Shown here: piece after piece, positions 16,038 to 54,139 of the stretch
Position numbering within the stretch: the stretch's first letter is position 1
Layout: every line of letters starts with the position of its first letter
NCBI GenBank assembly: GCA_027492205.1
Contig: JAOZFN010000009.1
Span: 97,316-161,315, forward strand
Direction of reading: 5' to 3'
Origin: Thermoproteota archaeon
GTDB taxonomy: Archaea > Korarchaeota > Korarchaeia > Korarchaeales > Korarchaeaceae
DNA: 64,000 bases
Notes under the pieces: model-generated
What the model was told of the DNA's origin: nothing
The model's database searches: none
The model's input: the letters and a program-made list of their open reading frames with translations, nothing else
Program-made: the position numbers and the translations under genes

Positions 16038-16039
16038 AA

Positions 16040-19362: not shown

Positions 19363-19365
19363 CCC

Positions 19366-19869: not shown

Positions 19870-19920
19870 AAAAACCACCTCCCAACCCATTTCGCCTACC
19901 TCGCGGGACAAGGAAAAAAT

Positions 19921-21108: not shown

Positions 21109-21113
21109 CGTGC

Positions 21114-23048: not shown

Positions 23049-23051
23049 GCA

Positions 23052-23546: not shown

Positions 23547-23719
23547 GTGATCACCGCCAGCCCTGAATGGGCCGAACAAGGGGCTCCCACAGAGACCAAA
23601 TAAATCATGGGATGGGAATTCGAATTCAGAACGTTATCCTCTCTGGGTATATCGAGTCAGGGGCAATGGAAAGGGCGCCATCTGATAGAGCGGAGCTTGA
23701 GGAGAGGGCGGTTATCGCG

Positions 23720-23742
23720 AGAAAAAAGGGGGAGAGATTTTT
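23720..23742 (-). terminator. T-tract terminator after BMP gene
   Basis: Minus strand ATCTCTCCCCCTTTTTTCT immediately after stop at 23746. Confidence 0.5.
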
Positions 23743-23745
23743 GGT

Positions 23746-25050: not shown

Positions 25051-25118
25051 GTCTATCCCTCCCACGGAGAGCGTGGGTGAGTTGATTGCCGATTTGATGC
25101 CCATAAATTTTTCCCGGG

Positions 25119-25232
25119 AGTCGAAAAGCTAACCCCGCCGCCCGGGCGTTCGGCCGGGGGCGGCCAGCGACCCGTTATCGCGAGATGGATAACGCAGTCG
25201 AAAAGCTAACCCCGCCGCCCGGGCGTTCGGCC
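25119..25232. repeat. Two exact 37-bp direct repeats separated by 40 bp
   Basis: AGTCGAAAAGCTAACCCCGCCGCCCGGGCGTTCGGCC at 25119-25155 and 25196-25232; spacer contains CGTTATC-N8-GATAACG inverted repeat. Confidence 0.92.
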
Positions 25233-25420
25233 CGGTAAAACGGACGTCTTACCCGAGAAAAGCGGGCATCGCCCCCAAATTGTTAAAATATTGTATCCAT
25301 AATCGTTCGTTGTCAACATTTTCAAGAAGACTGCGGCAGGCGCTGATCGATCATAGGGCGAGTTCCCGACCCACCGGGGGCCCGCCGGCCCGGCCTCAAA
25401 TGAGGGGTGAGGGGGAGGGG

Positions 25421-26365
25421 CTACTTCTCTCCCCTCACGTAGGGCACTCCGAGTGCTGCCGGAGCCCCCATTCTCCTCCTCATGGTCTCCGTGGCGCCGG
25501 CGGTGAGAACTATCACCGTTAATAGGTACGGCACTCCGTTCAGGAGCCACTGGCTGTACCCGTAGGCCTGCAGGGTGTACCCCCCGGCCTCGACGACTCC
25601 AAACAGGTAGGCCCCGAATATTGCCCTCAGCGGGTTCCAGAGGGCGAATATCGTGAGCGCCAGCGCTATCCATCCCCTGCCAGCTGTCATGTTCTCTATC
25701 CAGGCCGGGCTGTAGGCCACCGACAGGTAGGCCCCGGCCATGCCGGCCAGGGCCCCTCCAAGGGCTGTGCAGGCGTACCTCACGAGGTAGACGTTAATTC
25801 CGAGGGCGTCGGCGGCGGCGGGGTTTTCGCCCGTTGACCTGATAACTATCCCCACCTTGGTCCTGTAGAGGACGAACCAGAGGACGACGGCGATAACTAT
25901 GCTGAGGTAGAATAGCGGCTCCTGGTCGAACAGGGCCTTACCCACCAACGGGAGCTTGACTAGGCCCTCCGAGAGGGGCTTTGGGAGGAACCTCGCCTTG
26001 ACGGGTAGCTGATAGCCGACGTACTTTCTCCCGATCACGCTGCTCAGCCCGAGCCCGAACATCGTGAGGGCCAGGCCGGAGACGACCTGATTGCCCCGGA
26101 GGTGGATGCTGATTACCCCGTGTATGAGGGACATTAGTAGGCCGACCGCCGTCGCCACGGCCACGCCCAGCCAGGGGTTGCCCGTGGTCAGTGCGGTGAT
26201 GAAGGCGGATACCGCCCCCATTATCATCATGCCCTCGACGCCCAGGTTGAGTATTCCCGACCTCTCGGCGTAGATCTCGCCGAGAGAGGCCAGGAGGAGG
26301 GGGGTCGCCGATCTGAAACCGACCCACAGGATGTTCTCAACCACCGACAGGTCCATCCGCATCAC
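25421..26365 (-). CDS. Nucleoside ABC transporter permease
   Basis: GE..ERSGILNLGVEGMM, GENP.AA...GI.V, GRGWIALAL. Confidence 0.93.
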   Translation of the reverse strand: MMRMDLSVVENILWVGFRSATPLLLASLGEIYAERSGILNLGVEGMMIMGAVSAFITALTTGNPWLGVAVATAVGLLMSLIHGVISIHLRGNQVVSGLALTMFGLGLSSVIGRKYVGYQLPVKARFLPKPLSEGLVKLPLVGKALFDQEPLFYLSIVIAVVLWFVLYRTKVGIVIRSTGENPAAADALGINVYLVRYACTALGGALAGMAGAYLSVAYSPAWIENMTAGRGWIALALTIFALWNPLRAIFGAYLFGVVEAGGYTLQAYGYSQWLLNGVPYLLTVIVLTAGATETMRRRMGAPAALGVPYVRGEK

Positions 26366-27438
26366 CTCCTGAGCTGGATCCTGTATCGTAGGAGGAAGTC
26401 ACCGGCGAGGACGAAGAAGAGGACGGCTCCGTTGAACATGTCCACGACGCCGATCGGGAGCTTGTAGTCGATCATGATGTACTGGCCACCCACCAGGAGC
26501 CCTCCGAAGAGGAAGTTGGCGATCAGCAGGCCGATCGGGTTGACGCCGCCGAGCCAGGCCGTGATTATGCCCGTGAAGCCGTACCCCGAGAGGAACTCGG
26601 GCGTGAACCGATGCTGGATGCCCGCGAACTCCCCGACGCCCGCCAGCCCGGCTAGGCCGCCGCTTATGATCATGGCCAGGGTAACGGTCCTCAGGTAGCT
26701 GATCCCGGCCGCCCTAGCGGCCTCGGGGTTGTCGCCCACAACCTTCATCTCGTAGCCAGCTGTCGTGTAGTTCAGAAACACGTACACCCCAACGGCGGCG
26801 AGTATGGAGAGGATTAGCGTGGGCCAGTGGATCCTGGTCTCCCCGATCACAGGCAGCCAGGCGTTCTTGGATATGATCTCTGTGTGCGCGAACCCCCCGT
26901 ACGTGAGCTGACCGACCCTCTCCCTGGCCTTCCAAGGCCCGTGAATGAGGTGCTGGAAGACCCAGTAGATGACGTAATAGAGCATCAGGGTTGATATGAC
27001 GTCGTTCACGTTCAGCTTCGCCTTCAGGACCGCGGGCGGGATTCCCCAGGCCGCGCCGGCCGCGAACCCGACCAAGAACATGGATGGTATGAGCGCGATG
27101 GACGACGCGTCCGGGAACGTCCTGGCCACCACGTAGGCCGCCATCGCCCCCACCAGGAGCTGACCCTCGGCCCCTATGTTCCAGAAGCCAGTCTTGAAAA
27201 CCAGCGCGAGTCCGGCGCTGACGAGCAGGAGGGGCATCATTCTCACTATGGTCTCGGTGAGGCCGACCTTTGTGCCAAACGCGTTGAAGAAGATGGACCT
27301 GTAGACGTCAAGCGGGTTCACCCCATACGCGTAGAATATGACGGCCACCGCTAGCAGGGCCAACACGACGGATCCTATCCTGACGGCGAGGGCGAACCTT
27401 CTGGGCACAACCACGCGCTTCCGAACTATCACCCTCAT
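26362..27438 (-). CDS. Nucleoside ABC transporter permease
   Basis: WNIGAEGQ, GDNPEAARAAGI, SGGLAGLAG, GYGFTGI. Confidence 0.93.
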   Translation of the reverse strand: MRVIVRKRVVVPRRFALAVRIGSVVLALLAVAVIFYAYGVNPLDVYRSIFFNAFGTKVGLTETIVRMMPLLLVSAGLALVFKTGFWNIGAEGQLLVGAMAAYVVARTFPDASSIALIPSMFLVGFAAGAAWGIPPAVLKAKLNVNDVISTLMLYYVIYWVFQHLIHGPWKARERVGQLTYGGFAHTEIISKNAWLPVIGETRIHWPTLILSILAAVGVYVFLNYTTAGYEMKVVGDNPEAARAAGISYLRTVTLAMIISGGLAGLAGVGEFAGIQHRFTPEFLSGYGFTGIITAWLGGVNPIGLLIANFLFGGLLVGGQYIMIDYKLPIGVVDMFNGAVLFFVLAGDFLLRYRIQLRR

Positions 27439-29003
27439 GAGGCCATCTCCTCCCTGGCCAGCCTCCTGGCTCCGGCCATCATCAGCCCTATCTCCTCAAT
27501 CGAGGCCTCTTCTGGCCTGACTATGCCGACGATTTCACCGTTGAACATCACCCCAACCCTGTCGCTGAGCTGGAGCACCTCCTCGAGGTCCTCGGAGATT
27601 AGGAGCACGGCGGCCCCTCTCTTCCTCTGTTCGAGCAGGATCCGGCGGATGTACTCGGTCGCACCGACGTCCAGCCCGTAGGTGGGGTGGGCGGCCACGA
27701 TGAGCCTGGGCTCTTTGTGGAGTTCCCTGGCGCATATCAGCCTCTGGATGTTCCCCCCGGACAGGAGCTTCGCCGGGGTCAGGGGGCTTGGGGTCACTAT
27801 GTCGAACTTGTTGATGAGCCTCTCAGCATCCTCGATCACCTTAGAGTGGTCCAGGAGCAGCCCCCTCCTGTAGGGCTCCTTGTAGTAGTCCTTGAGGATG
27901 AGGTTCTCGGCGACGCTCAGGTTGGGTACGATGCCGTGCCTCAGCCTCTCCTCCGGAATGTGGGCCACCCCCCTGGAGGCGATGAACCTGGGCGACTTGT
28001 TTGTGACATCTACCCCGTCTATGAGTACTCGGCCCGCGGTGGCCTTCCTGAGTCCTACTACGACCTCCGCAAGCTCTCTCTGACCGTTCCCCGCGACCCC
28101 GGCTATGCCGAAGATCTCGCCCTCGTGGACCCTGAAGCTTACCCCCCTGACCGCGGGGAGCCCCCTGTCGTTCAGGGCGTGTAGGTTCTCCACCTCCAGG
28201 ACGGGCTTACCCCTCGAGACGCGTTCCTTCTCCAACCTGAACAGGACTTCCCTGCCCACCATCATCCTCGCGAGCTCCTCCTTAGTCGTCTCGCTGGCCT
28301 TCAGGGTGCCTACGACCTTCCCCCTCCTCATGACAGTGACCCGGTCGGCGACCTCGAACACCTCGTCCAGCTTGTGCGTGATGAAGATTATGCCCTTGCC
28401 CTCGTCCCTCATCCTCTTGATGATCTTGAACAGCTCCCTCGTCTCCTGCGGGGTCAGCACCGACGTCGGCTCGTCGAGTATAAGTATGTCGGCGCCGTGG
28501 TAGAGGGCCTTGATTATCTCGACCCTCTGCTGCTCGCCCGCGGAGAGCTGCCAGATGTAGGCGTCCGGATCGACCTTGAGCCCGTACTTCTCGGCGAACT
28601 CCCTGAGCCTCTCCTTTATCTCCTTCAACGGGTTCAGCAGGCTCTCGGCGTACCCCAGGGCTATGTTCTCCGCCACCGTGTGCCGATCCACGAGCATGAA
28701 GTGCTGGTGGACCATCCCTATCCCGAGGCTCATCGCGTCCCTGGGGCTCCTGATCTCGACCCTCCTGCCCCTGACGTAGATCTCGCCGCCGTCCGGGTAG
28801 TATATCCCATAGAGTATGTTCATCAGGGTGGTCTTCCCGGCGCCGTTCTCGCCGAGGAGGGCGTGTACCTCTCCGGGCCTCAGCTCGAAGTTGACGTGGT
28901 CGTTGGCCAGCACTCCGGGGAATCTCTTCACGATACTGACCATCTTAACGAGGAGGTCGGTTTCTCGGGGCTCGCTCGCCACGGCGGTAGCCTCAGAGGC
29001 CAA
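27435..29003 (-). CDS. Nucleoside/sugar ABC transporter ATP-binding protein (tandem NBD)
   Basis: GENGAGKTT, VHQHF, LSAGEQQR, ILDEPT, LSGGNIQR, PTYGLDV. Confidence 0.95.
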   Translation of the reverse strand: MASEATAVASEPRETDLLVKMVSIVKRFPGVLANDHVNFELRPGEVHALLGENGAGKTTLMNILYGIYYPDGGEIYVRGRRVEIRSPRDAMSLGIGMVHQHFMLVDRHTVAENIALGYAESLLNPLKEIKERLREFAEKYGLKVDPDAYIWQLSAGEQQRVEIIKALYHGADILILDEPTSVLTPQETRELFKIIKRMRDEGKGIIFITHKLDEVFEVADRVTVMRRGKVVGTLKASETTKEELARMMVGREVLFRLEKERVSRGKPVLEVENLHALNDRGLPAVRGVSFRVHEGEIFGIAGVAGNGQRELAEVVVGLRKATAGRVLIDGVDVTNKSPRFIASRGVAHIPEERLRHGIVPNLSVAENLILKDYYKEPYRRGLLLDHSKVIEDAERLINKFDIVTPSPLTPAKLLSGGNIQRLICARELHKEPRLIVAAHPTYGLDVGATEYIRRILLEQRKRGAAVLLISEDLEEVLQLSDRVGVMFNGEIVGIVRPEEASIEEIGLMMAGARRLAREEMAS

Positions 29004-29177
29004 GTTTCCCCCCGACCGCCTTTTTCGGGAACCATATTAATCTAACACTGGGGGGCGACCCGGCCAGCCCTAGAACGAGGTTAATTCTCAAAACCAATTG
29101 CCCCACGAGTCGCTCCCCGTAGCCACCTTCGGACAGGGGCCAAACGTTCGGGTGCCTGTTATTAGAAAGGTCCTCCG

Positions 29178-30527
29178 ATGTCCCACCAGCCGGAGGGGTG
29201 CGCGGTGATACTGTCGGGAAAGTGGGTTGTGACCTTTCAGGGGGGAGTCGACCTCGTAGAGGACGGGGCCGTCCTCGTCGAGGGCAGCGTGATCAAAGAC
29301 GTGGGGCCCAAGGGGCGGATAGTCAAGGAGAACCCCGGTGAAGATGTGATCGAGTTCCCCAAATCGGTAATCATGCCAGGGCTGATATGTGCCCACTGCC
29401 ACGCATACGGCGCCTTCGCCAGGGGGATGCCGCTGAAGGTTGAACCCCCGACGAGGTTCGTGGAGATCCTGGAGAGGATATGGTGGCACCTTGACAAGAG
29501 GCTCACTCTGGACGACGTCTACTACAGCGGGCTGGTCACGGCGATAGAGGCCGTCAGGCACGGGACCACCACGGTGTTCGACCATCACGCCAGCCCCTTC
29601 GCCATCACCGGCAGCTTGGAGAGGCTCGCCGAGGCGTTCAGGAAGGTCGGCGTCAGGGCCAACATAGCCTACGAGGTCTCGGACAGGGACGGTCTCGACA
29701 GAGCTGAGGAGGGGATCAGGGAGAACGTCGAGTTCATCAAGAGGCACCAGGGAGAAGAGTTCATCACTGGGAGCTTCGGCCTACACGCCCAGCTCACCCT
29801 CTCGGACGAGACGCTCGAGAAGGTCGTCGAGGCGGCCAGGGGCCTTGACACTGGATTTCACATCCACGTGGCCGAGGGGATCGAGGATGTCTTCGACAGC
29901 CTCCAGAAGTCTGGGAGGAGGGTAGTCGAGAGGCTGTGGGCGGCGGGCATACTCGGCGAGAAGACCATAGCAGCACACTGCGTCCACGTGAACGACAGGG
30001 AGATCAGGATTCTGAGGGACACTGGGACGAACGTGGTCCACAACCCCGAGTCCAACATGAACAACGCCGTGGGCGTGGCCCCAATAGTCAGGATGATAGA
30101 GCTCGGCATCAGGCCCGCGCTGGGCACGGACGGCTTCACGATGGATGTGTTCAGGGAGTCAAAGGTCGCCTACATACTCCACAAGCTCCACATGGCGGAC
30201 CCCAGGGTCATGGGGGCCGACAAGGTGGTGGAGATGCTGTTCCACAACAACTCCGAGCTGGCGGCCAAGTACTTCCCCAAGCCCCTCGGCAAGATCGTCC
30301 CGGGAGCGTTCGCCGACCTTGTGGTGCTGAGCTACAGGCCGTACACGCCCATGCACGAGGGGAACTTCCCGTGGCACTTCATATTCGGCATGGACGCCTC
30401 CCACGTTACGGACGTGTTGGTGGACGGGAAGTTCGTGGTGAGGAACGGAGAGCTCCTCACGGTAGACGAGGAGCAGATCTTTGAGGAGGCGCAGGAGCTG
30501 GCCCAGGCGCTTTGGGACCGGCTCTGA
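29178..30527 (+). CDS. ssnA: SsnA-like aminohydrolase (amidohydrolase superfamily)
   Basis: MPGLICAHCHAY.A.ARG, ILERIWW.LD, GTTTVFDHHASP, YEVSDRDG, GLHA..TLSD, HIHVAEG, HNPESNMNNAVG, GTDG. Confidence 0.9.
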   Translation: MSHQPEGCAVILSGKWVVTFQGGVDLVEDGAVLVEGSVIKDVGPKGRIVKENPGEDVIEFPKSVIMPGLICAHCHAYGAFARGMPLKVEPPTRFVEILERIWWHLDKRLTLDDVYYSGLVTAIEAVRHGTTTVFDHHASPFAITGSLERLAEAFRKVGVRANIAYEVSDRDGLDRAEEGIRENVEFIKRHQGEEFITGSFGLHAQLTLSDETLEKVVEAARGLDTGFHIHVAEGIEDVFDSLQKSGRRVVERLWAAGILGEKTIAAHCVHVNDREIRILRDTGTNVVHNPESNMNNAVGVAPIVRMIELGIRPALGTDGFTMDVFRESKVAYILHKLHMADPRVMGADKVVEMLFHNNSELAAKYFPKPLGKIVPGAFADLVVLSYRPYTPMHEGNFPWHFIFGMDASHVTDVLVDGKFVVRNGELLTVDEEQIFEEAQELAQALWDRL

Positions 30528-30713: not shown

Positions 30714-30905
30714 CTACTCGGTAACTATGGTCACCTTATGCCCCACCAGATCAACCGAGACCTCCTTGAAGCCCGATACTTCCAATTCCTCGCCATCCTC
30801 GTTGACTATGGTGACTCCCCCCTCCTTTATGACAACCAAAACAACCTCTTCCATGACCGACTTCCGAGACCCTCCAGAGACCACCACGGCGACCCCTTCA
30901 CACAT
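30714..30905 (-). CDS. cooT: CooT-family nickel-binding protein
   Basis: 63 aa all-beta pattern starting MCE (Cys2), VDL..H near C-terminus; last gene of CODH operon; GGAGGTG SD. Confidence 0.75.
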   Translation of the reverse strand: MCEGVAVVVSGGSRKSVMEEVVLVVIKEGGVTIVNEDGEELEVSGFKEVSVDLVGHKVTIVTE

Positions 30906-30963
30906 GCCGACCACCTCCCAATGGGCGGCTCAAAAGGGGGGGAGTGGGGGTGAGAGTCCAGGT

Positions 30964-31722
30964 TCACGGGCGGAACAGCCCCCTGGGTACGGGAGTAAAG
31001 TGCTCCTCGAGCCCCAGATCATCGATGGGCTCCCCGAGAGCGTAGGCGATCGGCTGGGTTGCGTGGAGCACCGGGAGGATCCCTCCCCCGTAAAAGTCCA
31101 GCATGAAGTGGCAGAGGTTGCATATGGTTACAACGCACTCCGCCCCTGCGTCCCTGGCCGATTCCAGAACGGATCTGGCCATTTGCTTGGCATACTCGGG
31201 CCGGCGGAGGAGAATCGGTCCGCCGCAGCACTTGACCCTCATCCTGAAGTCCACGGGCTCGGCTCCGACGGCCGACATGAGTTCCTCCAGGATTTGAGGA
31301 TCCTCGGGGTCATCTATAGCCTGCTCCCTCGGCCTCAGTGCCTGGCAGCCATAGTAGGGGGCGACCTTGACGGGCCAGCTCCTGACCACCCTTCTCGCGA
31401 TCTCCTCTGCCCCGACCCTCCTGCCGAGGAACTCGATCAGGTGCGTGACCTCTGCGCCGCCTCTCCTGAGGGTCCCATAGCACCCGGAGCACCCTGTGAC
31501 GAGGGTCGCGCCGCCCGCCACCTCTGCGACGATCTCCGCTACCCTCCGAGAGGCCTGCCTGTCCACCATCTCCAGCTCGACGGTCCCGCAGCAGGGCGCG
31601 TCGTCTATTAGGCGGTGGGGCACGCCCAGCCTCTCGAGCACTACCTCGGCGGTCCTCAGGTAGGGCCTCTCCGTGGTCAGCGCGGAGCATCCCGGATAGT
31701 AGGCCACCTCATCCCCTGACAA
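30964..31722 (-). CDS. hdrB: Heterodisulfide reductase subunit B-like (two CCG domains)
   Basis: YYPGC, PCCG, GCSGC, PYYGC..LRP, KCCGG, CNLCH. Confidence 0.9.
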   Translation of the reverse strand: MSGDEVAYYPGCSALTTERPYLRTAEVVLERLGVPHRLIDDAPCCGTVELEMVDRQASRRVAEIVAEVAGGATLVTGCSGCYGTLRRGGAEVTHLIEFLGRRVGAEEIARRVVRSWPVKVAPYYGCQALRPREQAIDDPEDPQILEELMSAVGAEPVDFRMRVKCCGGPILLRRPEYAKQMARSVLESARDAGAECVVTICNLCHFMLDFYGGGILPVLHATQPIAYALGEPIDDLGLEEHFTPVPRGLFRP

Positions 31723-32191
31723 CCCTTGCCACCTCCCGCCTGTACTCCTCCCTCACCGACCCGGACTCGGCGAGCATACCTGCCAGCTTCAGGCCGCGTA
31801 GGCCGGCCAGTGCGAGCACTCGAACTCCCAGAGCTGACAGCGCCACTCTCGCAGGGTTAACAAAAGCTCTCTTGCTCAGTTCCGAGATAAAAGCCCGCTC
31901 CACATTGTCCGGGCCTCTCTCCTTGGTTTCTACGTTGGACAGCGCGATGGCAACCTCCGGAAAGTTCAGCCCCACGGGACAGCGAACTGAGCAGAGGTGG
32001 CAGTGCATGCACAGCTTGTAATCCCCGCGAAACACCTCGTCCCTCAGGTCCAAGAGAATCGCCCTGATCAGCCTGTGGGGGTAGAAACCGTCAAGCCCGG
32101 CGCTGGGGCACGAGGACGTGCACTCCGCGCACTGGAAGCACTTCGTCACGTCCTGGCCGGAGATCTCGAGCACGCGCTTCGCTAGGCTCAC
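31709..32191 (-). CDS. hdrC: Heterodisulfide reductase subunit C-like
   Basis: CFQCAECTSSCP and CMHCHLCSVRCP; between mvhD and hdrB. Confidence 0.88.
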   Translation of the reverse strand: MSLAKRVLEISGQDVTKCFQCAECTSSCPSAGLDGFYPHRLIRAILLDLRDEVFRGDYKLCMHCHLCSVRCPVGLNFPEVAIALSNVETKERGPDNVERAFISELSKRAFVNPARVALSALGVRVLALAGLRGLKLAGMLAESGSVREEYRREVARVVRG

Positions 32192-33099
32192 GATCTCACC
32201 CTCCCGAGGGATATCGCCTTGGCGGAGGCCTTGGCCTTGCAGTCGGGGCAGATGGGCGGTGAGTCGGCCCTCTCAAGTTCGCGACCGGTGGCGAACGGCC
32301 TCCCGCAGATCGAGCACCTCGTCAGCTCAAGCCTGGCCACCTCGCTCCAATCGCTCAGGAGCTGTGGAACGCTCACCCCGCCGAGCGAGAGAGCCTCGAC
32401 CTCGTTCTCCCGGCAGGCGTCTACGCAGTCCCCGCAGCCCGTGCACTTGAGGGCGGACAGGAGGAACACCCTGAAGTCGCCGCGGTCCTCATAGAGGAGA
32501 GCACCCTCGGGGCAGGCCTCGGCGCACGCCCCGCAGCCAATGCACCTATCCAGGTCGAACACGGGCACCTCGAACCCGGGTATCGCCGGCAGCCGGACGT
32601 CCCTGACCTCCACGGCGATGGACTGGAGGGCGCGGATTAGCGCCTCTCTCTTGGGGCCTACGGGCACGCTCTCCCTCCGGTGGAGGGGGGGTAGCGCCTC
32701 CGCCCTGGCGGCCATCTCCCTGGCGGCCTCAACGAACCTGTGAGGCTCGGAGGCGGCCATGAAGAACATCTCCACCCTCTCCGGCTCCACCCCGAGGGCA
32801 TCCAGCAGCGACTTCAGGAAGCTCACCCTGCTCTCGGCCTTCAGGTTACCGTCAACGTAGTGGCACTCCCCCTTCCTGCACCCGGCCACGAAGGCCGCGT
32901 CCGCACCGTTGGCCAGCGCGTAGAGGAGCCAGCTCGGGTCGACCGCGCCCGAGCAGGGGACCCTCACCACGAGCACGTTGGGCGGGTGAGTGCGGTGCGT
33001 GCTCCCCGCGAGGTCGGCGGCCGCGTAGGCGCACTCGTTGCAGCAGAAGCCGACGACGAGCTTCTTCGGTCCTCCAGGCGACTCTGATCCCGAGGCCAT
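32188..33099 (-). CDS. mvhD: MvhD/FlpD [2Fe-2S] protein fused to 2x[4Fe-4S] ferredoxin and a C-terminal CxxC..CxxC domain
   Basis: GFCCNECAYAAADLAG, RVPCSG, GADA...GC..GECHY..GN; then CIGCGACAEACP, CTGCGDCVDAC, CSICG..CPDC. Confidence 0.88.
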   Translation of the reverse strand: MASGSESPGGPKKLVVGFCCNECAYAAADLAGSTHRTHPPNVLVVRVPCSGAVDPSWLLYALANGADAAFVAGCRKGECHYVDGNLKAESRVSFLKSLLDALGVEPERVEMFFMAASEPHRFVEAAREMAARAEALPPLHRRESVPVGPKREALIRALQSIAVEVRDVRLPAIPGFEVPVFDLDRCIGCGACAEACPEGALLYEDRGDFRVFLLSALKCTGCGDCVDACRENEVEALSLGGVSVPQLLSDWSEVARLELTRCSICGRPFATGRELERADSPPICPDCKAKASAKAISLGRVRS

Positions 33100-33102
33100 C
33101 CG

Positions 33103-35082
33103 CTACACCTCCCCGCCTGGCGAGGCCGGCGCGGCCTCCAAGAGGCCGGCCACCTGCCTCATCACCTGCTCGACCCCGTAGACCCTCCTGGTTATCGCGC
33201 CGGTCGGGCAGACGGGCTGGCAGATTCCGCAGCCGGCGCAAGCGGCCGGGACAACCTCCGCCCTGCCTTCCCTCTCAACGATGGCCCCGAACGGACACTC
33301 GTCGGCGCAGGCCATGCAGCCGACGCACAGCTCCGGGTCCACGTAGGCCCTCTCACCGGTGACCTCCACCCTCCCCCTCACCAGTACTGTAGCCGCAGCG
33401 CTGGCGGCCGCCTTCGCCTGAGCGACCGAATCTGGGATATCCTTGGGGCCTTGGGCTCCACCGCAGATGAAAATTCCCGGCCTAGAGGTCTCCACAGGCT
33501 TCAGCTTGGGGTGAAGCTCCTGGAGGAACCCGTGTAGATCCGCCCCCACGTTGAGCACCTCCCTAACCTTCAGGGTGCCCTCCGACGGGGACAATCCCGC
33601 GGCCAGCACCACGAGGTCCGCCCTGAGCTCCAGCTTCCTGCCGAGGGTCTTGTCGAACACCTCCACCACGAGTTCATCGCCGTCCCTCCAGACCTCCCCG
33701 GGCTTACCCTGGACGAAGACTACCCCCTCTCGTCTGACCCGCTCGTACATCTCCTCGAATCCTTTCTTCGCAGTCCTCATGTCGATGTAGCAGATGTAGA
33801 CCTTGGAGTCCGGATACTCGGACCTCAAGATCTCGGCCTGCTTCAGCGAGACCATGCAGCACACTCCCGAGCAGTAGGGGTTGTGGTTCACGTCCCTGCT
33901 TCCGGCGCACTGTATGAACACTACCCTCTTGGGCACCTTGCCGTCCGAGGGTCTCCTCAGGTGCCCCCCGGTGGGCCCCGTCACGTTGATCAGCCTCTCG
34001 AATCCGAGCTGGGTTATCACGTCCGGTATCCTCCCGAAGCCGTAGTTCTTGAGGTTGGATGCGTCGTACTCCCTGACGCCCGTTGCTACCACGATGGCGC
34101 CCACCCTGAGTTCGAACTCCCGCGGCTCCTCGCGGAGGTCTATGGCCTTCGTGGGGCAGGCCTCGGCGCACGCCCCGCAGGACCCCTCCCTGATGAAGAG
34201 ACACGCGTTCGGGTCTATCACGTAGGCCCTCGGCGTGGCCTGAGGATACGGGATGTAGGCGGCCTTCCTCTTGCCGAGGAAGGCGTCCCACTCGTTCGGG
34301 ACCTCGACAGGACACTTGGAGGCGCATACCCCGCACGCCACGCACTTCTCTGGATCCACGTACCTGGGGCTCTTTCTCACCCTCACCCGGAAGTCTCCGA
34401 TCGATCCGGATACCTCAACGACCTCCGAGGTGGTGTGGATGTCGATCAGTGGGTGGGCCTCGGCCTCGGCCATCATGGGGGTCAGGATGCACAGGGAGCA
34501 GTCGCCGGTCGGGAACACCCTGTCTAAGAGGGCCATGAGCCCACCCACCGTGGGCGAGCGCTCCACCAGGTGAACCCTGATTCCCTTCTCCGCCAGGTCC
34601 AGGGCCGCGGCGAGGCCAGCGACCCCGCCTCCGATGACCAGGGCCTCCCGAACGACCTCCGCCTCCCCGACCTCAATGGGCTCCGCGGCCAGGACCTTCT
34701 CCACTCCCCCCAAGACGTACCTGATGGCCTTCCGGGTCGCCTCCTCTGGGTCCTCGGTTGACCAGGAGACGAGCTCTCTTATGTTCACCTGCTCCATGTA
34801 GCCGGGGTTGAGGCCCGCCTCGGCCACGACCCTCCTGAAGAGGGGCTCGTGGAGCTTGGGGCTGCACGCCGCCACGACCACCCTGTCCACCTTACCCGCC
34901 TCCACATCCCTCTTGATGAGTTCCTGCCCCGCCCGGCTGCACATGAAGAAGTAGTCCCTGGAGACGGCTACTCTCGGGTGCCTTCCAGCCTCCTTGGCCA
35001 CCCTCCTCACGTCCACCTTGCCCGCGATGTTCTTGCCGCAGTGACAGACGTAGACTCCGACCCTAGGCTCCGACGACTCCAT
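33103..35082 (-). CDS. hdrA: Heterodisulfide reductase subunit A (flavin-based electron bifurcation)
   Basis: VGVYVCHCG.NIAG, MCS, AACSP, GGGVAG, FPT.DC..C, inserted and C-terminal ferredoxin domains, QCAGSR, YCS.VCC, GPKDIP; ATG after GGTGAT. Confidence 0.95.
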   Translation of the reverse strand: MESSEPRVGVYVCHCGKNIAGKVDVRRVAKEAGRHPRVAVSRDYFFMCSRAGQELIKRDVEAGKVDRVVVAACSPKLHEPLFRRVVAEAGLNPGYMEQVNIRELVSWSTEDPEEATRKAIRYVLGGVEKVLAAEPIEVGEAEVVREALVIGGGVAGLAAALDLAEKGIRVHLVERSPTVGGLMALLDRVFPTGDCSLCILTPMMAEAEAHPLIDIHTTSEVVEVSGSIGDFRVRVRKSPRYVDPEKCVACGVCASKCPVEVPNEWDAFLGKRKAAYIPYPQATPRAYVIDPNACLFIREGSCGACAEACPTKAIDLREEPREFELRVGAIVVATGVREYDASNLKNYGFGRIPDVITQLGFERLINVTGPTGGHLRRPSDGKVPKRVVFIQCAGSRDVNHNPYCSGVCCMVSLKQAEILRSEYPDSKVYICYIDMRTAKKGFEEMYERVRREGVVFVQGKPGEVWRDGDELVVEVFDKTLGRKLELRADLVVLAAGLSPSEGTLKVREVLNVGADLHGFLQELHPKLKPVETSRPGIFICGGAQGPKDIPDSVAQAKAAASAAATVLVRGRVEVTGERAYVDPELCVGCMACADECPFGAIVEREGRAEVVPAACAGCGICQPVCPTGAITRRVYGVEQVMRQVAGLLEAAPASPGGEV

Positions 35083-35086
35083 TTGA

Positions 35087-35890
35087 TCACCCGAAGATCT
35101 CAGAGAACGCACTACTCAACGCTAAGATGGCAGGAGAGCTGTTGGGGATCGCCTTCACCCCTCTCCCCTCGATACTAGCCCTCAGCACCTCCGGGTCGCT
35201 CGGAACGAAGAACACCCTCGCGTCGGCGGAGAACCTCACCTCTATCTCTCCTTTGAGTGCCTCTCCTCCTTCTGGCACCTTGTTGACGATCAGCGAGAAC
35301 TCGCGGATCCCCAGCTGTCTCCCCATCTTGATGAGGCGCTTCGATATGTCTAGGGAGGCCACGGTGGGCTCTGAGACGCAGATCATGTGGTCGAAGTTCT
35401 CCGCGAGGCCCCTGCCGAAGACCTCGGCTCCCGCCTCCGAATCAACCACCACGGCGGATCTCTCGTCTGCTGACGACACGAGGTGCTTCAGTAGTCTCTT
35501 GGCCAGCGCGATGGCCGGGCAAAGGCACCCCTGCTTTGCTGCGTCTATGCTGCCCACGACCAGCAGGCTCAGCCCGTCCTCGATCCTCACCCCGTACCTC
35601 TCGGAGAGGTCGTCCACCCTCGGGTTGACGCGAAACAGCACCCCCCAGGCCTGGCCGGGTCTCGCCCCGGTTCTCTGCTCTACCAGCTCCTCGTTCCTCA
35701 CGAGCGGGACGATGCCGCGGCTGACATCGGCGGGCAGCCCCAGAGCCATGCCGAGGTTGGGGACCGAGTCCGCGTCAACGGCTAGGACCCTCATGCCGCG
35801 GTCACGCAAAAAGTGGGAGAGGAGGGCGGCCACAGTCGTCTTGCCCACCCCTCCCTTCCCGGCCACGAGAACCCTGAGGGGCAATCCCAT
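35087..35890 (-). CDS. cooC: CO dehydrogenase nickel-insertion ATPase
   Basis: GKGGVGKTT, VDAD..PNL..ALG, GCLCP, DSEAG.E.FGRG; ATG 35890 overlaps cooS stop. Confidence 0.92.
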   Translation of the reverse strand: MGLPLRVLVAGKGGVGKTTVAALLSHFLRDRGMRVLAVDADSVPNLGMALGLPADVSRGIVPLVRNEELVEQRTGARPGQAWGVLFRVNPRVDDLSERYGVRIEDGLSLLVVGSIDAAKQGCLCPAIALAKRLLKHLVSSADERSAVVVDSEAGAEVFGRGLAENFDHMICVSEPTVASLDISKRLIKMGRQLGIREFSLIVNKVPEGGEALKGEIEVRFSADARVFFVPSDPEVLRASIEGRGVKAIPNSSPAILALSSAFSEIFG

Positions 35891-37845
35891 CACTCCGGCC
35901 AGCCAAGGGCCCTTCTCTTCTCCGCTATGTGGGCCATGATCACCTCGGCAGCCTTCGCCGGGTCGGGCTCCACGAAGAACTTCCCGCCGACGAGGTCCTC
36001 CGCCTTGTCGGTGAGTATCTCGACAACCTTCTTGCTGCCAAGGACCGGAGGGACGGTTCCCAAGTGGACCAGTAGGCCGGATGCGACGAAGTAGGACCCT
36101 ATAGAGACTGCCTTCTCGCTCATCCACTCCGGGGCGGAGCCGGCCGCGGGCAGGTCGGATATGTCGACCCCCAGGTGGTCGGCCAGCGCCGCGAGTGCGA
36201 TCAGCATCCTGGAGCAGTCGACGCAGCTCCCCATGTGGAGCGCGGGCGGGATCCCGAGCGCTTTGCATATCTCCCTGAGCCCCGGCCCAGCGAGATCAGC
36301 TGCCTCAGGAAGGAGGAGGCCGTGCTTGCCCATGGCTATGCCCCAGCAGCCCGTGCCCACTATCAGAACGTCTCTCTTGATCAGCTCCTTGGTGAGGGTG
36401 ACGTGGCTGTGATCGTGCTTCACCTTGGGGTTGACGCACCCCACGATGCCCACGATCCCCTTGATCTTGCCTGCCTTAAGGGCGTCGGCCAAGGGCTCCA
36501 GAGAGCCGCCTAACGCCTCAAGGATCGCCTCAACGCTGAATCCAGCCACCAGCTCGGACTTCTCCTTGGGTATCAACACCCTCTCCGGGTTCCTGTTCTT
36601 GAAGTTCTCCACGGCGATCCGGACTATCTTCTTCGCCGTCTCGGTCGCGTTGGCCTTGTCGAACTCTACGTGAATGGCGCCCGGTATGTGGGCCTTCGGC
36701 TCCGTTGTGATAACCTTTGTGTGGTAACAGGACGCCACGTCGACGATCGCGGGCATGATGCACTGGTAGTCGACTATGACCGCCTCTAGGGCTCCGGTAG
36801 CTATGGCCAGCTCCTGCTGTAGGAGGTTCCCTGCTACGGGTACCCCCAGTCTGACGAGTATCTCGTTCCCTGTGCAGCACATCCCGACGACGTTGATTCC
36901 CCCCTCAGCACCGAGCTCCCTGGCCATCTGAACCAGCTCCGGATCTCCGGCTACCTCTGCGATCTTCATGGAGAGAACCGGGTTGTGACCGTGCACCAGT
37001 ATGTTGACGGCATCCTCTCTGAGAACCCCCAGGTTGGCCACTGACCTGATCGGCTTCGGGGTGCCGAACATCACGTCGCTCAGTAGGGTCGCCATCATGG
37101 AGCCGCTCCAGCCGTCGGCCAAGGCGCACCTCAGCCCCTGAGCGATGAGGGTGAGCGGGTCCGCGTCGACGCCCATGTGAGTCCTGTGCATTATCTCGGT
37201 GACTTCCCTGTCAATCGCCCTCGGCATTATCCCGACCTTCCTCCAGATGTCCTTCCTCTTCTTCGGAGCGTAGGCCTCGACCAGTTTGAGGGGCTCCTCT
37301 CCGGGCTTGCCGAACTCCCACTCCATTACCTCGGCCACTTCCTTCGCAATGTCGTTCAGCTCCCTGCCCTCGACCTCCAGCCCAAGGGCCTGAGCGACTC
37401 CCCTCAGCTTGTCGGGGTCCTTGATGCCGTAGTCCTTAGCCCAGCCCTCGGGTATGCCCTTGAAGACCTCGACTATGTCTCTGGCGTGGTCGCTGTGGGC
37501 GGCCGCCCCGGCGGCGAGCATCCTCATCAGGTTCCTGGCTACTATCGTGTCCGCGGTGGCCCCGCAGACGCCCTTCTGTGGTCCGTATCCGAACGGATCG
37601 ATCCTGCAGGGACCCATATTGCAGTTCCTGCAGCAGACCCCCAGGAGCCCGAATCCGCACTGCGGCTGCTGGGCCAGGTACCTGTGCCAAGCCGTCTCGG
37701 CCCCGTCCATCTCGGCCTTCTCCAGGAGCTGGGGCACGGTGGGATCGATGGATACGGACTCGTAGAACTCCCTCCTGGCGGCCCTCATGAGTCTCTCGTA
37801 GACCCTCTCCGAACCGGGCTTCTCTTTCTCCACCGAGGCCGTCAT
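35890..37845 (-). CDS. cooS: Anaerobic Ni,Fe carbon monoxide dehydrogenase catalytic subunit
   Basis: QPQCGFG..GVCCRNCNMGPCRI, CGA, AHSDH, HGHNP, MCCTG, DYQC, VGC.NP, TGC, GSCVD, SEKA - full B/C/D cluster ligand set. Confidence 0.96.
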   Translation of the reverse strand: MTASVEKEKPGSERVYERLMRAARREFYESVSIDPTVPQLLEKAEMDGAETAWHRYLAQQPQCGFGLLGVCCRNCNMGPCRIDPFGYGPQKGVCGATADTIVARNLMRMLAAGAAAHSDHARDIVEVFKGIPEGWAKDYGIKDPDKLRGVAQALGLEVEGRELNDIAKEVAEVMEWEFGKPGEEPLKLVEAYAPKKRKDIWRKVGIMPRAIDREVTEIMHRTHMGVDADPLTLIAQGLRCALADGWSGSMMATLLSDVMFGTPKPIRSVANLGVLREDAVNILVHGHNPVLSMKIAEVAGDPELVQMARELGAEGGINVVGMCCTGNEILVRLGVPVAGNLLQQELAIATGALEAVIVDYQCIMPAIVDVASCYHTKVITTEPKAHIPGAIHVEFDKANATETAKKIVRIAVENFKNRNPERVLIPKEKSELVAGFSVEAILEALGGSLEPLADALKAGKIKGIVGIVGCVNPKVKHDHSHVTLTKELIKRDVLIVGTGCWGIAMGKHGLLLPEAADLAGPGLREICKALGIPPALHMGSCVDCSRMLIALAALADHLGVDISDLPAAGSAPEWMSEKAVSIGSYFVASGLLVHLGTVPPVLGSKKVVEILTDKAEDLVGGKFFVEPDPAKAAEVIMAHIAEKRRALGWPE

Positions 37846-38465
37846 TCAGACCACCTCACGGTCCCATACATCTCCCTGAGAGATGCCAGGGGGGATCTGG
37901 GGGCCCTCTCCGTTGGCCTGGCGTACACCACCGCGGCCTCGGCCAGACCCAGCACCATCTCAGCGGCCCTCCTGACCTTCTCCCTGTCCAGGATCTCTTC
38001 GGCCCTGCCATACCTCAGGGCGCCCGTCGGGCAGGCCTCGACGCACGCTGGCGGGAGTCCAACCCGGAACCTGTCAACGCAGTGGTCGCACTTCACAACC
38101 TTCCTCCTGAAGTCGTAGGTCGGGTGGCCAAAGGGGCAGGCGAGGAGGCAGGTCCTGCACCCTATGCACCTATCGAGGTCCGATACCACGAACCCCTCCT
38201 CGGTCCTGTGCATGGCCCCCGTGGGGCAGGCCTCGACGCAGGGGGCCGGGTCACAGTGCATGCACCTCATCGGCACGTAGACGCCGGCTGCCGGGACCAC
38301 CTTCGTCCTCGGCCTGGGCGTGGGATCCTCGAAGACGGCCTGAAACAGCTCCTTTGAGGAGGAGTGCTCGACCGCGCAGGCTATCTCGCAGCTCCTGCAC
38401 CCCACGCATCTCTCGGGGTCGACGTAGATGAGGTATTCCAGGTAGCTCGGAGGGACGGTTGCCAT
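37842..38465 (-). CDS. cooF: CO dehydrogenase Fe-S electron-transfer subunit
   Basis: Four Cys clusters (CVGCRSCEIAC.VEH, CMHC..APC, CIGCRTC, KCDHC); immediately upstream of cooS. Confidence 0.9.
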   Translation of the reverse strand: MATVPPSYLEYLIYVDPERCVGCRSCEIACAVEHSSSKELFQAVFEDPTPRPRTKVVPAAGVYVPMRCMHCDPAPCVEACPTGAMHRTEEGFVVSDLDRCIGCRTCLLACPFGHPTYDFRRKVVKCDHCVDRFRVGLPPACVEACPTGALRYGRAEEILDREKVRRAAEMVLGLAEAAVVYARPTERAPRSPLASLREMYGTVRWSE

Positions 38466-38476
38466 TCATCCCCCCG

Positions 38477-38530
38477 GGAGAATTCTGAACCCGCTCAAGA
38501 AAAATTCTCCGATTTAGGTAAAAAATTTAA
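38477..38530 (-). promoter_or_regulatory. Putative coo-hdr promoter with operator-like inverted repeat
   Basis: AT-rich TTAAATTTTTTACC on minus strand (38530-38517) followed by GGAGAATT-N18-AATTCTCC (38477-38510). Confidence 0.5.
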
Positions 38531-39687
38531 CTAAGCCCCTTCGTTTAACGTGAGGTTAAAACGGACGATCCCCAGGCCGGCCTTGTAGCCCCGGTAGGAC
38601 CGCACCAGCTCGAGGGCCTCCGGCGTGAGGACCACGCCTCCCCGTCCGGCGCCGCCCTTCCACGACTCGAAGAGCTTGAACCCCAGGGCGGACTCCATTC
38701 TCTTGAGCCTCCTGTACACCGCCGGGGGGGACAGCCCGAGGCTCCTCGCGACGGCGCTGAGGCTCCCCGTCGACTCCAGCATAGAGAGCAGGTCCAGATC
38801 GTCTTCATCCAGGATTTGACCGTCCTTCGTGACCAGCCTGAGGGAAGGGATGAACGAGTAGGCCGCGGAGCGCTCTATCAGCTCGCACCCCGAGCCGAGT
38901 ATGCTCCGGAGTTCCTCCGGCCCGTAGGCCGGGTTGAGCTGGCCCAGCATGGGGCACTTGCCAACCAGGCCGGACGGGTCCATGTAGATAATCCTGCATT
39001 CCCTGCGACATCTAGGGCCCGAGAGGAGGTATACCGGAAAGTCCCGGTGGAACGTCACTCTCATCTCGTAGATCCCCATGAACTCTCCGAAGGGGTCTGA
39101 GACGTCGTACCCCCTGCCTTGCATAGCCTTTACCACGTCCGCTGGACACCTGGTGACCGGGCAGAAGACCGGGGGAGAGACCCACACCTGGAGACCCCAC
39201 GACCTGCCGATGTTCACCATCTCTGTGATCTCTTCGTCGTTCAACCCGGGGACGTAGATGGACATCAACCTCATGGATTTCTCAGCCACGAGGAGCCTCC
39301 TGACGAACCTCTTGGCGCGCTTAAGCTCGGAGGTCGAGTAGCAGAACAGGAATATCTCGCCTGCTTTCATGAGACGTTCTGGAGATCTCTCACGGGAGCC
39401 AGCCGCCGCGGGGACGAACACGTGAGATTCCAGGCCCCTGTCGGTCGCCGCCGCGATCAGCTCCTCCACCCTAGGGTGAGCCAGCGGTTAGGACACGTGA
39501 AGTACACGTCGGGCCTCAGGCCAGAGCCTATCAGCGAGTCCAAGAAGACCTCAACCCTGTGGGGGTCAAGAAAGCCACGGGGAGGGACCCTCTCCTCGGC
39601 GCGCGGGCAGTAGGAGCACGCGGAGTCGCAGCCGTCGATGGACCTCACGACTGCTATCGCCTCGGCGCGGCCCGCAGGTGGACTCAA
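38531..39687 (-). CDS. Radical-SAM-like Fe-S protein with C-terminal ModE-type winged HTH, split by a one-base frameshift near 39486
   Basis: ORF 39457-39687 has CDSACSYC; adding one C at AAC|CGC gives TCPNPLAHPRVEELI continuing into ORF 38531-39469, which ends in TGSLSAVARSLGLS...GGAGRGGVVLT. Confidence 0.72.
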
Positions 39688-40235
39688 CTGCGGGTTCCTC
39701 CCTCGAGGACCTCCGCTTCAAATGCGCACGCGTCCGCCCCAGCGGCCTGGCACTCCCTCTCAATCATCGGGCCTATTCGAATGCCGGTCGTGTCCTCCAC
39801 CAGGGCGGCGAGGAGGCCGGCCGTGAAGTGACACACGGGCGAATCCGACCTCCTCCCCCTGGCCTCGAACGAGTCCCTTACCCTGACAACCACCTTCTCC
39901 TCTCCTAACGTGATCGACAGGATGTCGCCGAACCCCAGGGACCTGTAAACCCTCCTGGCCACGTCCAGCATCTCGCTGAGAGACAGCTTCTCCTTGGTTG
40001 AGACTATGCCCTTGGAGTCGTGGACCTTCATCATCCTGTAGGCGGAGTAGTACAGGACCGGCCTCAGACCCTTCTCGCCCACGAAGACGGTCAGCCCGGC
40101 CATGAAGTCCGCCCACCATCGGGTAGACATCAGGAACATGTCCTTGAGCACGACCCTGCCGAAGTGGGGGATGTCCACCTCGGCCCGGAGCACCCCCCTC
40201 CTGTGGGGGTCCTCCTCGATTGCCCTAAGGCTCAT
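39684..40235 (-). CDS. V4R (4-vinyl reductase) domain protein
   Basis: LGFG, VRDSFE, PVCHFTAGLLA, ERECQAAG.DACAFE; ATG 40235 after GGTG; stop overlaps next TTG start. Confidence 0.85.
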   Translation of the reverse strand: MSLRAIEEDPHRRGVLRAEVDIPHFGRVVLKDMFLMSTRWWADFMAGLTVFVGEKGLRPVLYYSAYRMMKVHDSKGIVSTKEKLSLSEMLDVARRVYRSLGFGDILSITLGEEKVVVRVRDSFEARGRRSDSPVCHFTAGLLAALVEDTTGIRIGPMIERECQAAGADACAFEAEVLEGGTRS

Positions 40236-40404
40236 CTCCGCACCTAGAGAACATTTCCGGGACCAAAATAACGATTTATCCGGCGGTAAAAACGGCGCGA
40301 GGTCCAGCAACTGACCGTGCTGGGCAGGTCGTGGACTTGACTGTCCGGGTGTATGGATGCGGAGATAGGGACAGGGTTATGAGGCGGGCTGCGCCCGCTG
40401 ACCT

Positions 40405-48601: not shown

Positions 48602-48603
48602 GA

Positions 48604-51320: not shown

Positions 51321-51426
51321 CCCTTCGCTTTTGACGCCGCTAGCCAATGGATGGTACTCCAAGCGAATCCTCTTGTCGTAAAACTTTTTCAGGGATCATA
51401 AAGGATAGGGAGCGAGTGGAGTTGGG

Positions 51427-54054: not shown

Positions 54055-54139
54055 TGTGGACACCCGCCCGACCAGTTCTTTTGCGCTCGACAGGTTTATG
54101 AGAATTCCCTCGCGAGCCATGGGCCGGGGTGTGACCCCT

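Follow-up and report, generated by a model that had tools for sequence, protein, structure and literature searches.

In the 64,000-nucleotide window analysed here (by which we mean the whole stretch of DNA, taken from contig JAOZFN010000009.1), positions 30714-38465 of the minus strand contain a gene cluster that combines a carbon monoxide dehydrogenase (CODH) with an HdrABC-MvhD module of the heterodisulfide reductase (Hdr) type. The list of open reading frames (ORFs) and the matches to Pfam and NCBIfam identify eight genes in the order cooF-cooS-cooC-hdrA-mvhD-hdrC-hdrB-cooT, in which mvhD is a fusion gene (Table 1). We consider it reasonably probable that the operon encodes one multi-subunit enzyme, a CO-dependent Hdr complex whose HdrABC-MvhD module receives its electrons from CO. 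The physical complex, the direction of electron flow, the bifurcation and the disulfide acceptor in this proposal are what we infer from the genes and from one complex model.

Gene organization of the coo-hdr operon

All junctions between the eight genes are overlaps or short spacers, and the largest gap is at most 58 nucleotides (nt). The stop codon of cooF lies over the start codon of cooS in an overlap of 4 nt, cooS and cooC also overlap by 4 nt, and spacers of 4 and 3 nt separate cooC from hdrA and hdrA from mvhD, respectively. Further downstream, mvhD and hdrC overlap by 4 nt and hdrC and hdrB by 14 nt, and the widest junction is the spacer of 49-58 nt between hdrB and cooT. Two of the start codons deserve comment. 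The hdrA gene probably starts at the ATG at 35082, located 4 nt past the cooC stop codon as in the relatives, rather than at the alternative GTG, and cooT probably starts at the ATG at 30905, which gives a protein that begins with Met-Cys. The downstream border of the operon is set by a convergent amidohydrolase gene at 29178-30527 on the plus strand.

The initial annotation had described one tightly coupled operon in which the maturation genes cooC and cooT bracket the hdr genes, and both points are borne out by the gene coordinates, strand and order. It had also called the CODH genetically fused to the Hdr module. This holds in the sense of a shared operon, but there is no CODH-Hdr gene fusion, and the sole fusion is that of MvhD with a ferredoxin-like domain.

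Table 1. Positions of the operon genes and of the features upstream of them in the window (aa, amino acids).
Feature	Position	Strand	Description
cooF	37842-38465	-	207 aa polyferredoxin, Fer4_11, four [4Fe-4S] clusters
cooS	35890-37845	-	651 aa Ni-CODH catalytic subunit, TIGR01702
cooC-like maturation ATPase	35087-35893	-	268 aa, CbiA/MinD-type P-loop
hdrA	33103-35082	-	Full-length bifurcating type; ORF call to 35112 with alternative GTG start
mvhD + HycF-like 2x[4Fe-4S] ferredoxin + C-terminal Cys4	32188-33099	-	303 aa
hdrC	31709-32191	-	160 aa, two [4Fe-4S] motifs, Fer4_17 + Fer4_8
hdrB	30964-31722	-	252 aa, two CCG domains as non-cubane cluster sites
cooT, Ni chaperone	30714-30905	-	PF10133; GTG start at 30914 in the ORF call
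LysR-type helix-turn-helix (HTH) protein, one half of CorQR-like pair	38531-39469	-	PF00126 HTH_1, 47 bits, residues 224-285
V4R-domain protein, other half of CorQR-like pair	39684-40310	-	PF02830 V4R, 49.5 bits
AT-rich spacer, candidate promoter and ribosome-binding site	38466-38530 (65 nt)	-	Read by eye

The CODH genes are readily assigned. CooS scores 758.7 bits against TIGR01702 (cut-off 478) and 1017 bits against PDB 6t7j_B, and it is the single match to the Prismane/CODH family in the genome. CooF matches Fer4_11 with 78.1 bits and HycB of PDB 7z0s with an E-value of 9.4e-14, and its 16 cysteines are arranged in four CxxCxxCxxxC-type motifs, all of them invariant in an alignment of 13 rows (A2). 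CooT reaches 29.6 bits against PF10133, for which the cut-off is 27. Homologs of CooC that are 25-85% identical are located near cooS in the relatives and in many outside loci, and its family assignment is at the level of the P-loop. The equivalog score of CooS, the family score of CooT and the four cluster motifs of CooF together characterize a Ni-CODH, which cooC and cooT would mature.

Judging from its sequence motifs, the Hdr module has the architecture of the bifurcating enzymes: HdrA is full-length, HdrB contains two CCG domains, HdrC contains two [4Fe-4S] motifs and a [2Fe-2S] subunit of the MvhD type is present, while a known donor module (MvhAG, FdhAB or Elp) is lacking in the operon. 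HdrA (659 aa) aligns with the solved HdrA of Methanothermococcus (5odc_A) at 649.7 bits, residues 14-658 against 2-650, and its flavin-site motif (DCSxCIL), the CxC motif near its N-terminus and the cluster motifs of the inserted and C-terminal ferredoxin domains are all in register. Its best model is NF040770 (HdrA2), of which it covers positions 1-647 of 777. HdrB matches PF02754 with 87 bits in two stretches, and although it is about 40 residues shorter than the solved HdrB, it aligns with 8rvu_b at 104.8 bits with both C...CC...CxxC (CCG) cysteine sets in register. In HdrC, the CxxCxxCxxxCP motif occurs twice.

Upstream of cooF, the genes for a LysR-type HTH protein and a V4R-domain protein form a pair that resembles the archaeal CO regulator CorQR, described in the accessible text of PMC6557876 as a V4R protein and a LysR-HTH protein flanking a CODH cluster. 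Both the domain make-up and the position of the pair fit this published description, which is the basis of the comparison. A V4R homolog is present at the equivalent place in 10 of 20 loci from relatives in the phylum, and a LysR-HTH homolog upstream of cooF is kept in the relatives and is 27% identical in locus L012, outside the phylum. The spacer between the pair and cooF, as read by eye, contains the stretch TTAAATTTTTTACCTAAAT within a genome of 63% G+C, and GGGGGGATGA directly precedes the ATG of cooF as a candidate ribosome-binding site. Expression of the operon is probably induced by CO through this CorQR-like pair.

Conservation and modularity of the arrangement

The ten proteins encoded by the operon and the regulator genes were compared with the CooS loci of relatives in a set of 43 species genomes of the phylum. 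A CooS match was found in 21 of the 43, and the flanks of all 20 loci other than the one studied here were compared. The synteny that the initial annotation had proposed to search for does recur. The order cooS-cooC-hdrA-mvhD-hdrC-hdrB is present in full in nine of the 20 loci (G008 and G010 from the same genus; G035 and G036; G013, G014, G023, G031 and G033), distributed over three genera with protein identities of 50-98%. Another two contigs end inside hdrA (G011, G015), five are cut too early to tell (G004, G009, G027, G030, G032), and four loci have no hdr genes (G037, G005, G025, G002). The arrangement, kept in nine other species genomes at this level of identity, is more than chance.

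The spacings are kept between the genera, where HdrA is 72-75%, the MvhD fusion 63-69%, HdrC 50-58% and HdrB 55-64% identical. The cooF gene and the regulator pair are present in eight of the nine complete loci, while the contig of G014 starts inside cooS. According to tblastn searches, cooT directly follows hdrB in seven of the nine; it is located on the opposite strand about 1.4 kb past hdrB in G036 and gave no match in G035. Among the loci without hdr genes, G037 has the order cooF-cooS-cooC-cooT, with cooT directly after cooC, and the CooS proteins of G025 and G002 belong to a different clade (61-63% identity). Four metagenome contigs also contain the operon, two in full (L134, L135) and two in part (L133, L136). 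In a maximum-likelihood tree of 24 CooS rows, all Hdr-linked copies group with that of G005 in a single 13-row clade (support values 97/99), and G037 is placed outside it. MvhD frames of fusion size (292-380 aa) are present in 13 of the 43 genomes, all 13 of which have CooS, and in none of the 22 CooS-negative genomes; a frame of 403 aa in G005 was left out of this count.

The genes that follow cooC usually represent the electron sink, because the closest cooF-cooS-cooC cassettes outside the phylum precede other acceptor modules. In L012 the cassette is followed by Mrp-like genes and by Complex1 30k and 49k genes with a NiFe signature, that is, by an energy-converting hydrogenase (ECH), and in L013 by genes for NuoE-like, NuoF-like and Fer2_4/Fer4 proteins. 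The cooF-cooS pair of G005, a member of a sister family (L115:1662-3328), encodes a CooS that is 83% identical and is not followed by cooC or hdrA. It is flanked divergently by genes for a Fer4_11 protein of 278 aa and a protein of 277 aa with two CCG domains, which possibly represent a simpler link from CODH to a CCG reductase.

The Hdr part of the operon is also found beside a different enzyme operating at ferredoxin potential. In the metagenome locus L137 (4830-13897), the alpha, beta and gamma genes of a 2-oxoacid:ferredoxin oxidoreductase are directly followed by hdrA and an MvhD fusion that is 32% identical. Next come the gene for a CooF-like Fer4_11 protein and two unknown genes, and then hdrC, hdrB and the gene for a further Fe-S protein. 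The same core is present in L142, and it is from these two arrangements that we recognize the Hdr, MvhD fusion and CooF-like proteins as a recurring unit.

The MvhD fusion and its predicted contact with CooF

The MvhD fusion contains an FlpD domain (152 bits, residues 15-136), a Fer4 domain with two 4Fe-4S motifs (residues 178-235) and a tail with four cysteines, and its MvhD part covers positions 648-773 of NF040770. In an alignment of 23 sequences (A1), five cysteines of the MvhD core, eight of the ferredoxin motifs and the four at the C-terminal end (C262, C265, C284 and C287) are invariant. Homologs of the fusion with 34-46% identity are found in proteins that their source labels Thermoplasmata or Methanomassiliicoccales. 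The AlphaFold2 model of the fusion has a mean pLDDT of 89.1 and splits into two halves. The N-terminal half matches the MvhD subunits of 5odh, 8rvu and 7bkb with TM-scores of 0.86-0.92 when normalized to the target, and the core compares with 5odh_D at a TM-score of 0.87 and 42% identity. The best match to the C-terminal half is HycF of the Escherichia coli formate hydrogenlyase (7z0s_F, E-value 8.4e-8, 24% identity), and the sequence searches agree that the extension is HycF-like. A NuoG-N-like identity for the extension was rejected, since the similarity of residues ~212-303 to the C-terminal end of small Fer2_4/Fer4 proteins (27-36% over 81-95 residues) is too weak.

Proteins of the Fer2_4/Fer4 kind, of about 250 aa, are themselves encoded at CODH loci. 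In L013, L021, L041 and L084, which come from different bacterial groups, cooS and cooF are followed by genes for a NuoE-like, a NuoF-like and such a Fer2_4/Fer4 protein, and in L041 and L084 this cluster is followed by an acetyl-CoA synthase (ACS). The ACS subunit of the Clostridia-labelled locus L041 (10057-13896) is 1279 aa long, and its CdhC part is separated from its C-terminal part by Intein_splicing and LAGLIDADG domains, so that an intein is located within ACS.

In formate hydrogenlyase and in the CODH-ECH complex, a subunit of the HycF/NuoI type takes electrons from a polyferredoxin of the HycB/CooF type. A complex of CooF and the MvhD fusion was modelled from the two alignments A2 (13 rows) and A1 (23 rows), and CooF was placed on the HycF-like extension; the initial annotation had suggested predicting the docking of CooF, MvhD and HdrA. 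The model scored 0.63 compared to 0.00 for the best of three controls; 58 of 80 solved complexes attain this mark, as do 2 of 110 mismatched pairs, although the self-made alignments make the calibration approximate. The runs share at least 81% of their contacts, and the pLDDT of the partner is at least 82. In the confident contacts, CooF takes part with residues 101-115, which form its third cluster motif, and the fusion with residues 189-195, 228-233 and 270-298, so that the predicted interface is located on the added domain, away from the MvhD core.

These features bear on whether the CODH and Hdr proteins meet at all. It is unlikely, but deserves consideration, that no physical complex is formed, that CODH and CooF reduce free ferredoxin which HdrABC-MvhD with its ferredoxin domain then oxidises, and that the shared operon only provides co-regulation. 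There is a biochemical precedent for such a route: according to the accessible text of PMC5296606, CO, H2O and CoMS-SCoB were converted in vitro to the thiols and CO2 by a reconstituted system of CODH/ACS, ferredoxin and HdrA2B2C2. The HdrA of the window best matches precisely the HdrA2 model, and its CooF carries no feature specific to Hdr. However, the dedicated HycF-like domain of MvhD, 12 cysteines of which are invariant in the 23 sequences, speaks against this route, as does the predicted position of CooF on this domain, with the self-made alignments and the existence of a similar solved complex as caveats. A CooF-like gene is moreover found directly after a fusion of the same type in L137 and L142.

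Candidate electron donors and acceptors in the genome

The window represents contig C11 of a genome of 1.94 Mb in 17 contigs that is 96.4% complete. It contains the TATA-binding protein, identifying it as an archaeon, and mcrA was not found at this level of completeness, in agreement with the non-methanogenic archaeon proposed initially. This makes CoM-S-S-CoB an unlikely substrate; mcrA is present in 1 of the 43 genomes of the phylum. The genes cooS, hdrA, mvhD, hdrB and hdrC are each present in a single copy, and tblastn searches of the genome with the window proteins revealed no second hdrA, mvhD, hdrC or cooS. The sole other hdrB-like match, on C5, is weak (24% over 137 residues) and corresponds to another CCG protein. 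The FlpD matches in the genome are the operon copy and a 25-bit fragment within a polyferredoxin. A Psr/Phs-like molybdoenzyme, accompanied by TtrB/DsrO-like and NrfD-like subunits, is encoded next to this divergent polyferredoxin of 538 aa (C9:85543-91249, L010), in which a weak MvhD-like piece scores 77.8 bits against the C-terminal region of the HdrA2 model.

The initial annotation had listed mvhA/mvhG, fdh, ACS and Ech genes as absent from the window, which is correct: all matches in the genome to NiFe hydrogenases, Complex1_49kDa and molybdopterin enzymes are located on C9 and none on C11, and CdhC/ACS (PF03598) gave no match in the genome. Its description of the system as being without a hydrogenase applies to the window and to hydrogenases of the Mvh type, but the genome does encode a single NiFe hydrogenase. 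This enzyme is group-1-like, its small subunit has an uptake-type C-terminal domain, and genes for a HybA-like subunit, hyp genes and an Fdn-like formate dehydrogenase adjoin it. The single Complex1_49kDa match on C9 is not matched by the NiFe-hydrogenase family PF00374, in contrast to the ECH large subunit of L012, which is matched by both. The genome thus lacks a NiFe-hydrogenase signature alongside Complex1_49kDa, as would be seen in a hydrogenogenic CODH-ECH.

It is very unlikely that the electron donor of Hdr is encoded elsewhere, be it the group-1-like hydrogenase, the Fdn-like formate dehydrogenase, F420H2 or NAD(P)H, and that the position of the hdr genes in the operon is a regulatory or historical accident. 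The genome has the two enzymes and four genes of the F420_ligase family, HdrA2-type enzymes can use F420H2 directly (PMC5296606, in its accessible text), and the cooC-cooT pair of G037 stands without hdr. However, the hydrogenase has an uptake-type small subunit and a HybA-like partner rather than MvhG/MvhD, FrhB/FdhB gave no match in the genome, the hdr genes are inserted and translationally coupled in all three genera, and fusion-type MvhD is only found in genomes with CooS. The initial annotation had recommended looking for a partner of Hdr elsewhere in the genome, and the search returned a single Hdr/MvhD set, with neither an Mvh-type hydrogenase nor a partner of the FdhB/FrhB type. Since no other fitting donor or partner was found in the genome, the CODH is left as the one cytoplasmic donor that is encoded together with Hdr or could plausibly serve it. 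Paralogs of the F420_ligase family number three or four per genome in the genus, even though the genome studied here has no FrhB/FdhB match.

Proposed electron flow

In the CO-dependent Hdr complex that we favour, CooS would oxidise CO, and the four clusters of CooF would carry the electrons to the HycF-like two-cluster domain of the MvhD fusion. From there they would pass via the [2Fe-2S] site of MvhD to the flavin adenine dinucleotide of HdrA, the point at which MvhAG (for H2), FdhAB (for formate) or Elp deliver electrons in the solved complexes. HdrC would then relay them to HdrB, whose two non-cubane clusters would reduce a disulfide-type acceptor. A second branch would lead via the ferredoxin domains of HdrA to free ferredoxin, and it is likely because HdrA keeps the whole bifurcating architecture. 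The overall reaction would be 2 CO + Fd(ox) + RSSR -> 2 CO2 + Fd(red) + 2 RSH, where Fd is ferredoxin and RSSR the disulfide. A plain CO:disulfide oxidoreductase is equally allowed. The Psr/Phs-like reductase and a complex-I-like enzyme encoded in the genome could perhaps re-oxidise the products.

Several observations weigh against this proposal. With a potential of about -520 mV, CO can reduce ferredoxin directly and has no evident need for bifurcation. The enzyme would accordingly be either the plain CO:disulfide oxidoreductase or one that generates an electron of unusually low potential. HdrA (804 bits against a cut-off of 1100 for NF040770), HdrB (117.8 bits against 345 for TIGR03288) and HdrC (53.5 bits against 160 for TIGR03290) are all under the NCBIfam equivalog cut-offs, for which reason we do not call the module a CoB-CoM heterodisulfide reductase. 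Neither DsrC nor mcrA, which might have pointed to the disulfide acceptor, was found in the genome. Within the genus, a gene of the ComA family (phosphosulfolactate synthase) is found only in this genome and in G008, and G010 lacks it despite having the operon; we rejected it as evidence for coenzyme M, as it is a lone gene (C7:10963-11679) with a score of 243.8 against a cut-off of 280 and no com genes adjoining. The CooF proteins of the hdr-less clusters L125, L115, L012 and L013 align in the same way as that of the window, in which no Hdr-specific feature was seen, and the success of the complex model may reflect the likeness to the solved HycB-HycF pair (PDB 7z0s) rather than binding here. 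Finally, the arrangement is lineage-restricted: among the 80 best CooS loci from outside the phylum, only 35 of them with at least 6 kb on both sides, not one has hdrA-mvhD next to cooS or cooC, and one of them, L043, has hdrC-hdrB-hdrA at a distance of 5.6-8.3 kb from cooS.

A reversed flow, in which bifurcation by Hdr drives electrons via CooF into CooS for the reduction of CO2 to CO, much as Hdr feeds formylmethanofuran dehydrogenase, was offered as an option in the initial annotation. Ni-CODH is reversible, and the solved Fdh-Hdr-Fmd (7bkb) and Hdr-Vhu-Fwd complexes channel low-potential electrons to a CO2 reductase, as stated in the accessible parts of their descriptions. We nevertheless regard this direction as highly improbable, given that the 96.4%-complete genome has no CdhC/ACS to use the CO, Hdr is not accompanied by genes for a mid-potential donor module, a CO-regulator-like pair is located upstream, and CooF is predicted on the MvhD side, which is the entry in the solved complexes, and not on the side where ferredoxin exits. 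It is scarcely credible that the Hdr-like proteins serve the CODH itself, for example by activating it reductively or by repairing its oxidised clusters or cysteines, as their bracketing by cooC and cooT might suggest, since a bifurcating-type HdrA of 659 aa with every cluster motif far exceeds the needs of repair and the module also adjoins the 2-oxoacid:ferredoxin oxidoreductase in L137 in the absence of a CODH. We know of no precedent for CODH repair by Hdr-like proteins, which counts against this role.

Beyond the CO-dependent Hdr complex itself, a broader and decidedly doubtful proposal is that the MvhD-HycF fusion and a CooF-type polyferredoxin form a general adaptor that connects oxidoreductases of very low potential, such as CODH or the 2-oxoacid enzyme of L137, to HdrABC. 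Bifurcation through it would make an electron at perhaps -700 mV or lower, which could drive reductions that otherwise require ATP, for example the reduction of acids to aldehydes by the four AOR-family enzymes of the window. With a donor near -500 mV and a disulfide at -150 to -250 mV, bifurcation would yield an electron well below the ferredoxin potential.

Neighbouring genes in the window

Three of the AOR-family tungsten enzymes are encoded at 14100-16049, 17395-19362 and 21114-23048, and the fourth at 57926-59749. Genes for CooF-like polyferredoxins were located beside AOR genes by tblastn at approximately 19414-19863, 23076-23534 and 63100-63492. Near the AOR genes are also a PreA-like protein with DHO_dh and Fer4 domains (19921-21123), two amidohydrolases and a nucleoside-type transporter of the Bmp/ABC kind (23746-29003). 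The AOR, PreA-like, amidohydrolase and transporter genes (14100-30527) would fit the reductive nucleobase pathway suggested in the initial annotation. On the other side of the operon, the region 45281-55312 has a G+C content of 0.52-0.58 compared to about 0.63 and encodes an SNF2-helicase/NOV_C protein of 1106 aa and a DUF499 protein of 875 aa as well as a methyltransferase-like protein, and from these features it looks like a defence or mobile island.

Comparison with known systems

HdrABC-MvhD is the best-understood flavin-based electron-bifurcating machine, with H2, formate and F420H2 as its known donors. If the proposal is true, a CODH-wired Hdr in a non-methanogen represents a fourth donor class and raises the sharp energetic question of why electrons that are already at ferredoxin potential should be split. 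The substrate of Hdr outside the methanogens would also become testable, because CO provides a clean and inducible handle. The operon further proposes a coupling for CO oxidation in an archaeal lineage with neither ECH nor ACS in the genome, and points to the HycF-like extension of MvhD as a docking domain.

Full-text searches of the literature, supplements excluded, gave no description of a cooS-cooC-hdrA-mvhD operon; such a context might be depicted in Supplementary Figures 2-3 of PMC6344411 or in Fig. S1 of PMC5296606. A context study from 2026 (PMC13056359) and an HdrA survey from 2025 (PMC12054007) contain none of the relevant terms. The accessible text of the CODH context survey PMC6344411 places Hdr-like COGs near Ni-CODH genes only within the Wood-Ljungdahl group, and that of PMC10811742, on one candidate lineage, couples CO oxidation to H2 or nitrite. 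Where hdrCBA-mvhD is located beside CODH/ACS, the context is ACS and the methyl branch, whereas here there is no ACS and the hdr genes are located between cooC and cooT.

The operon resembles the MvhAGD-HdrABC complex of the hydrogenotrophic methanogens (5odc/5odh) in HdrA, over 645 residues, in the motifs of HdrB and HdrC and in the MvhD core. However, CooS and CooF replace MvhA and MvhG here, MvhD has the extra HycF-like domain and HdrB is shortened. In the Fdh-Hdr-Fmd (7bkb) and Elp-Hdr (8rvu) complexes, according to the accessible parts of their descriptions, a different donor likewise enters HdrA via an MvhD-type subunit. The donor is here CO, the potential of which is far below those of H2, formate and F420H2, and the energetic logic of the bifurcation therefore differs from that of these two systems.

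In NCBIfam, HdrA (804 bits) and the MvhD part (157.5 bits) both score highest against HdrA2B2C2 of Methanosarcina acetivorans. In that enzyme, HdrA and MvhD form one polypeptide and the ferredoxin is free, while here the two are encoded by adjacent but separate genes, MvhD is fused to the HycF-like domain, CODH and CooF are encoded in the same operon and both scores fall under the cut-off of 1100. The CODH-ECH complex and the formate hydrogenlyase of E. coli (7z0s) share with the operon the cooF-cooS-cooC cassette and the transfer from a polyferredoxin to a two-cluster subunit of the HycF/NuoI type, but the HycF-like unit is here fused to MvhD and would lead to Hdr instead of to a membrane hydrogenase.

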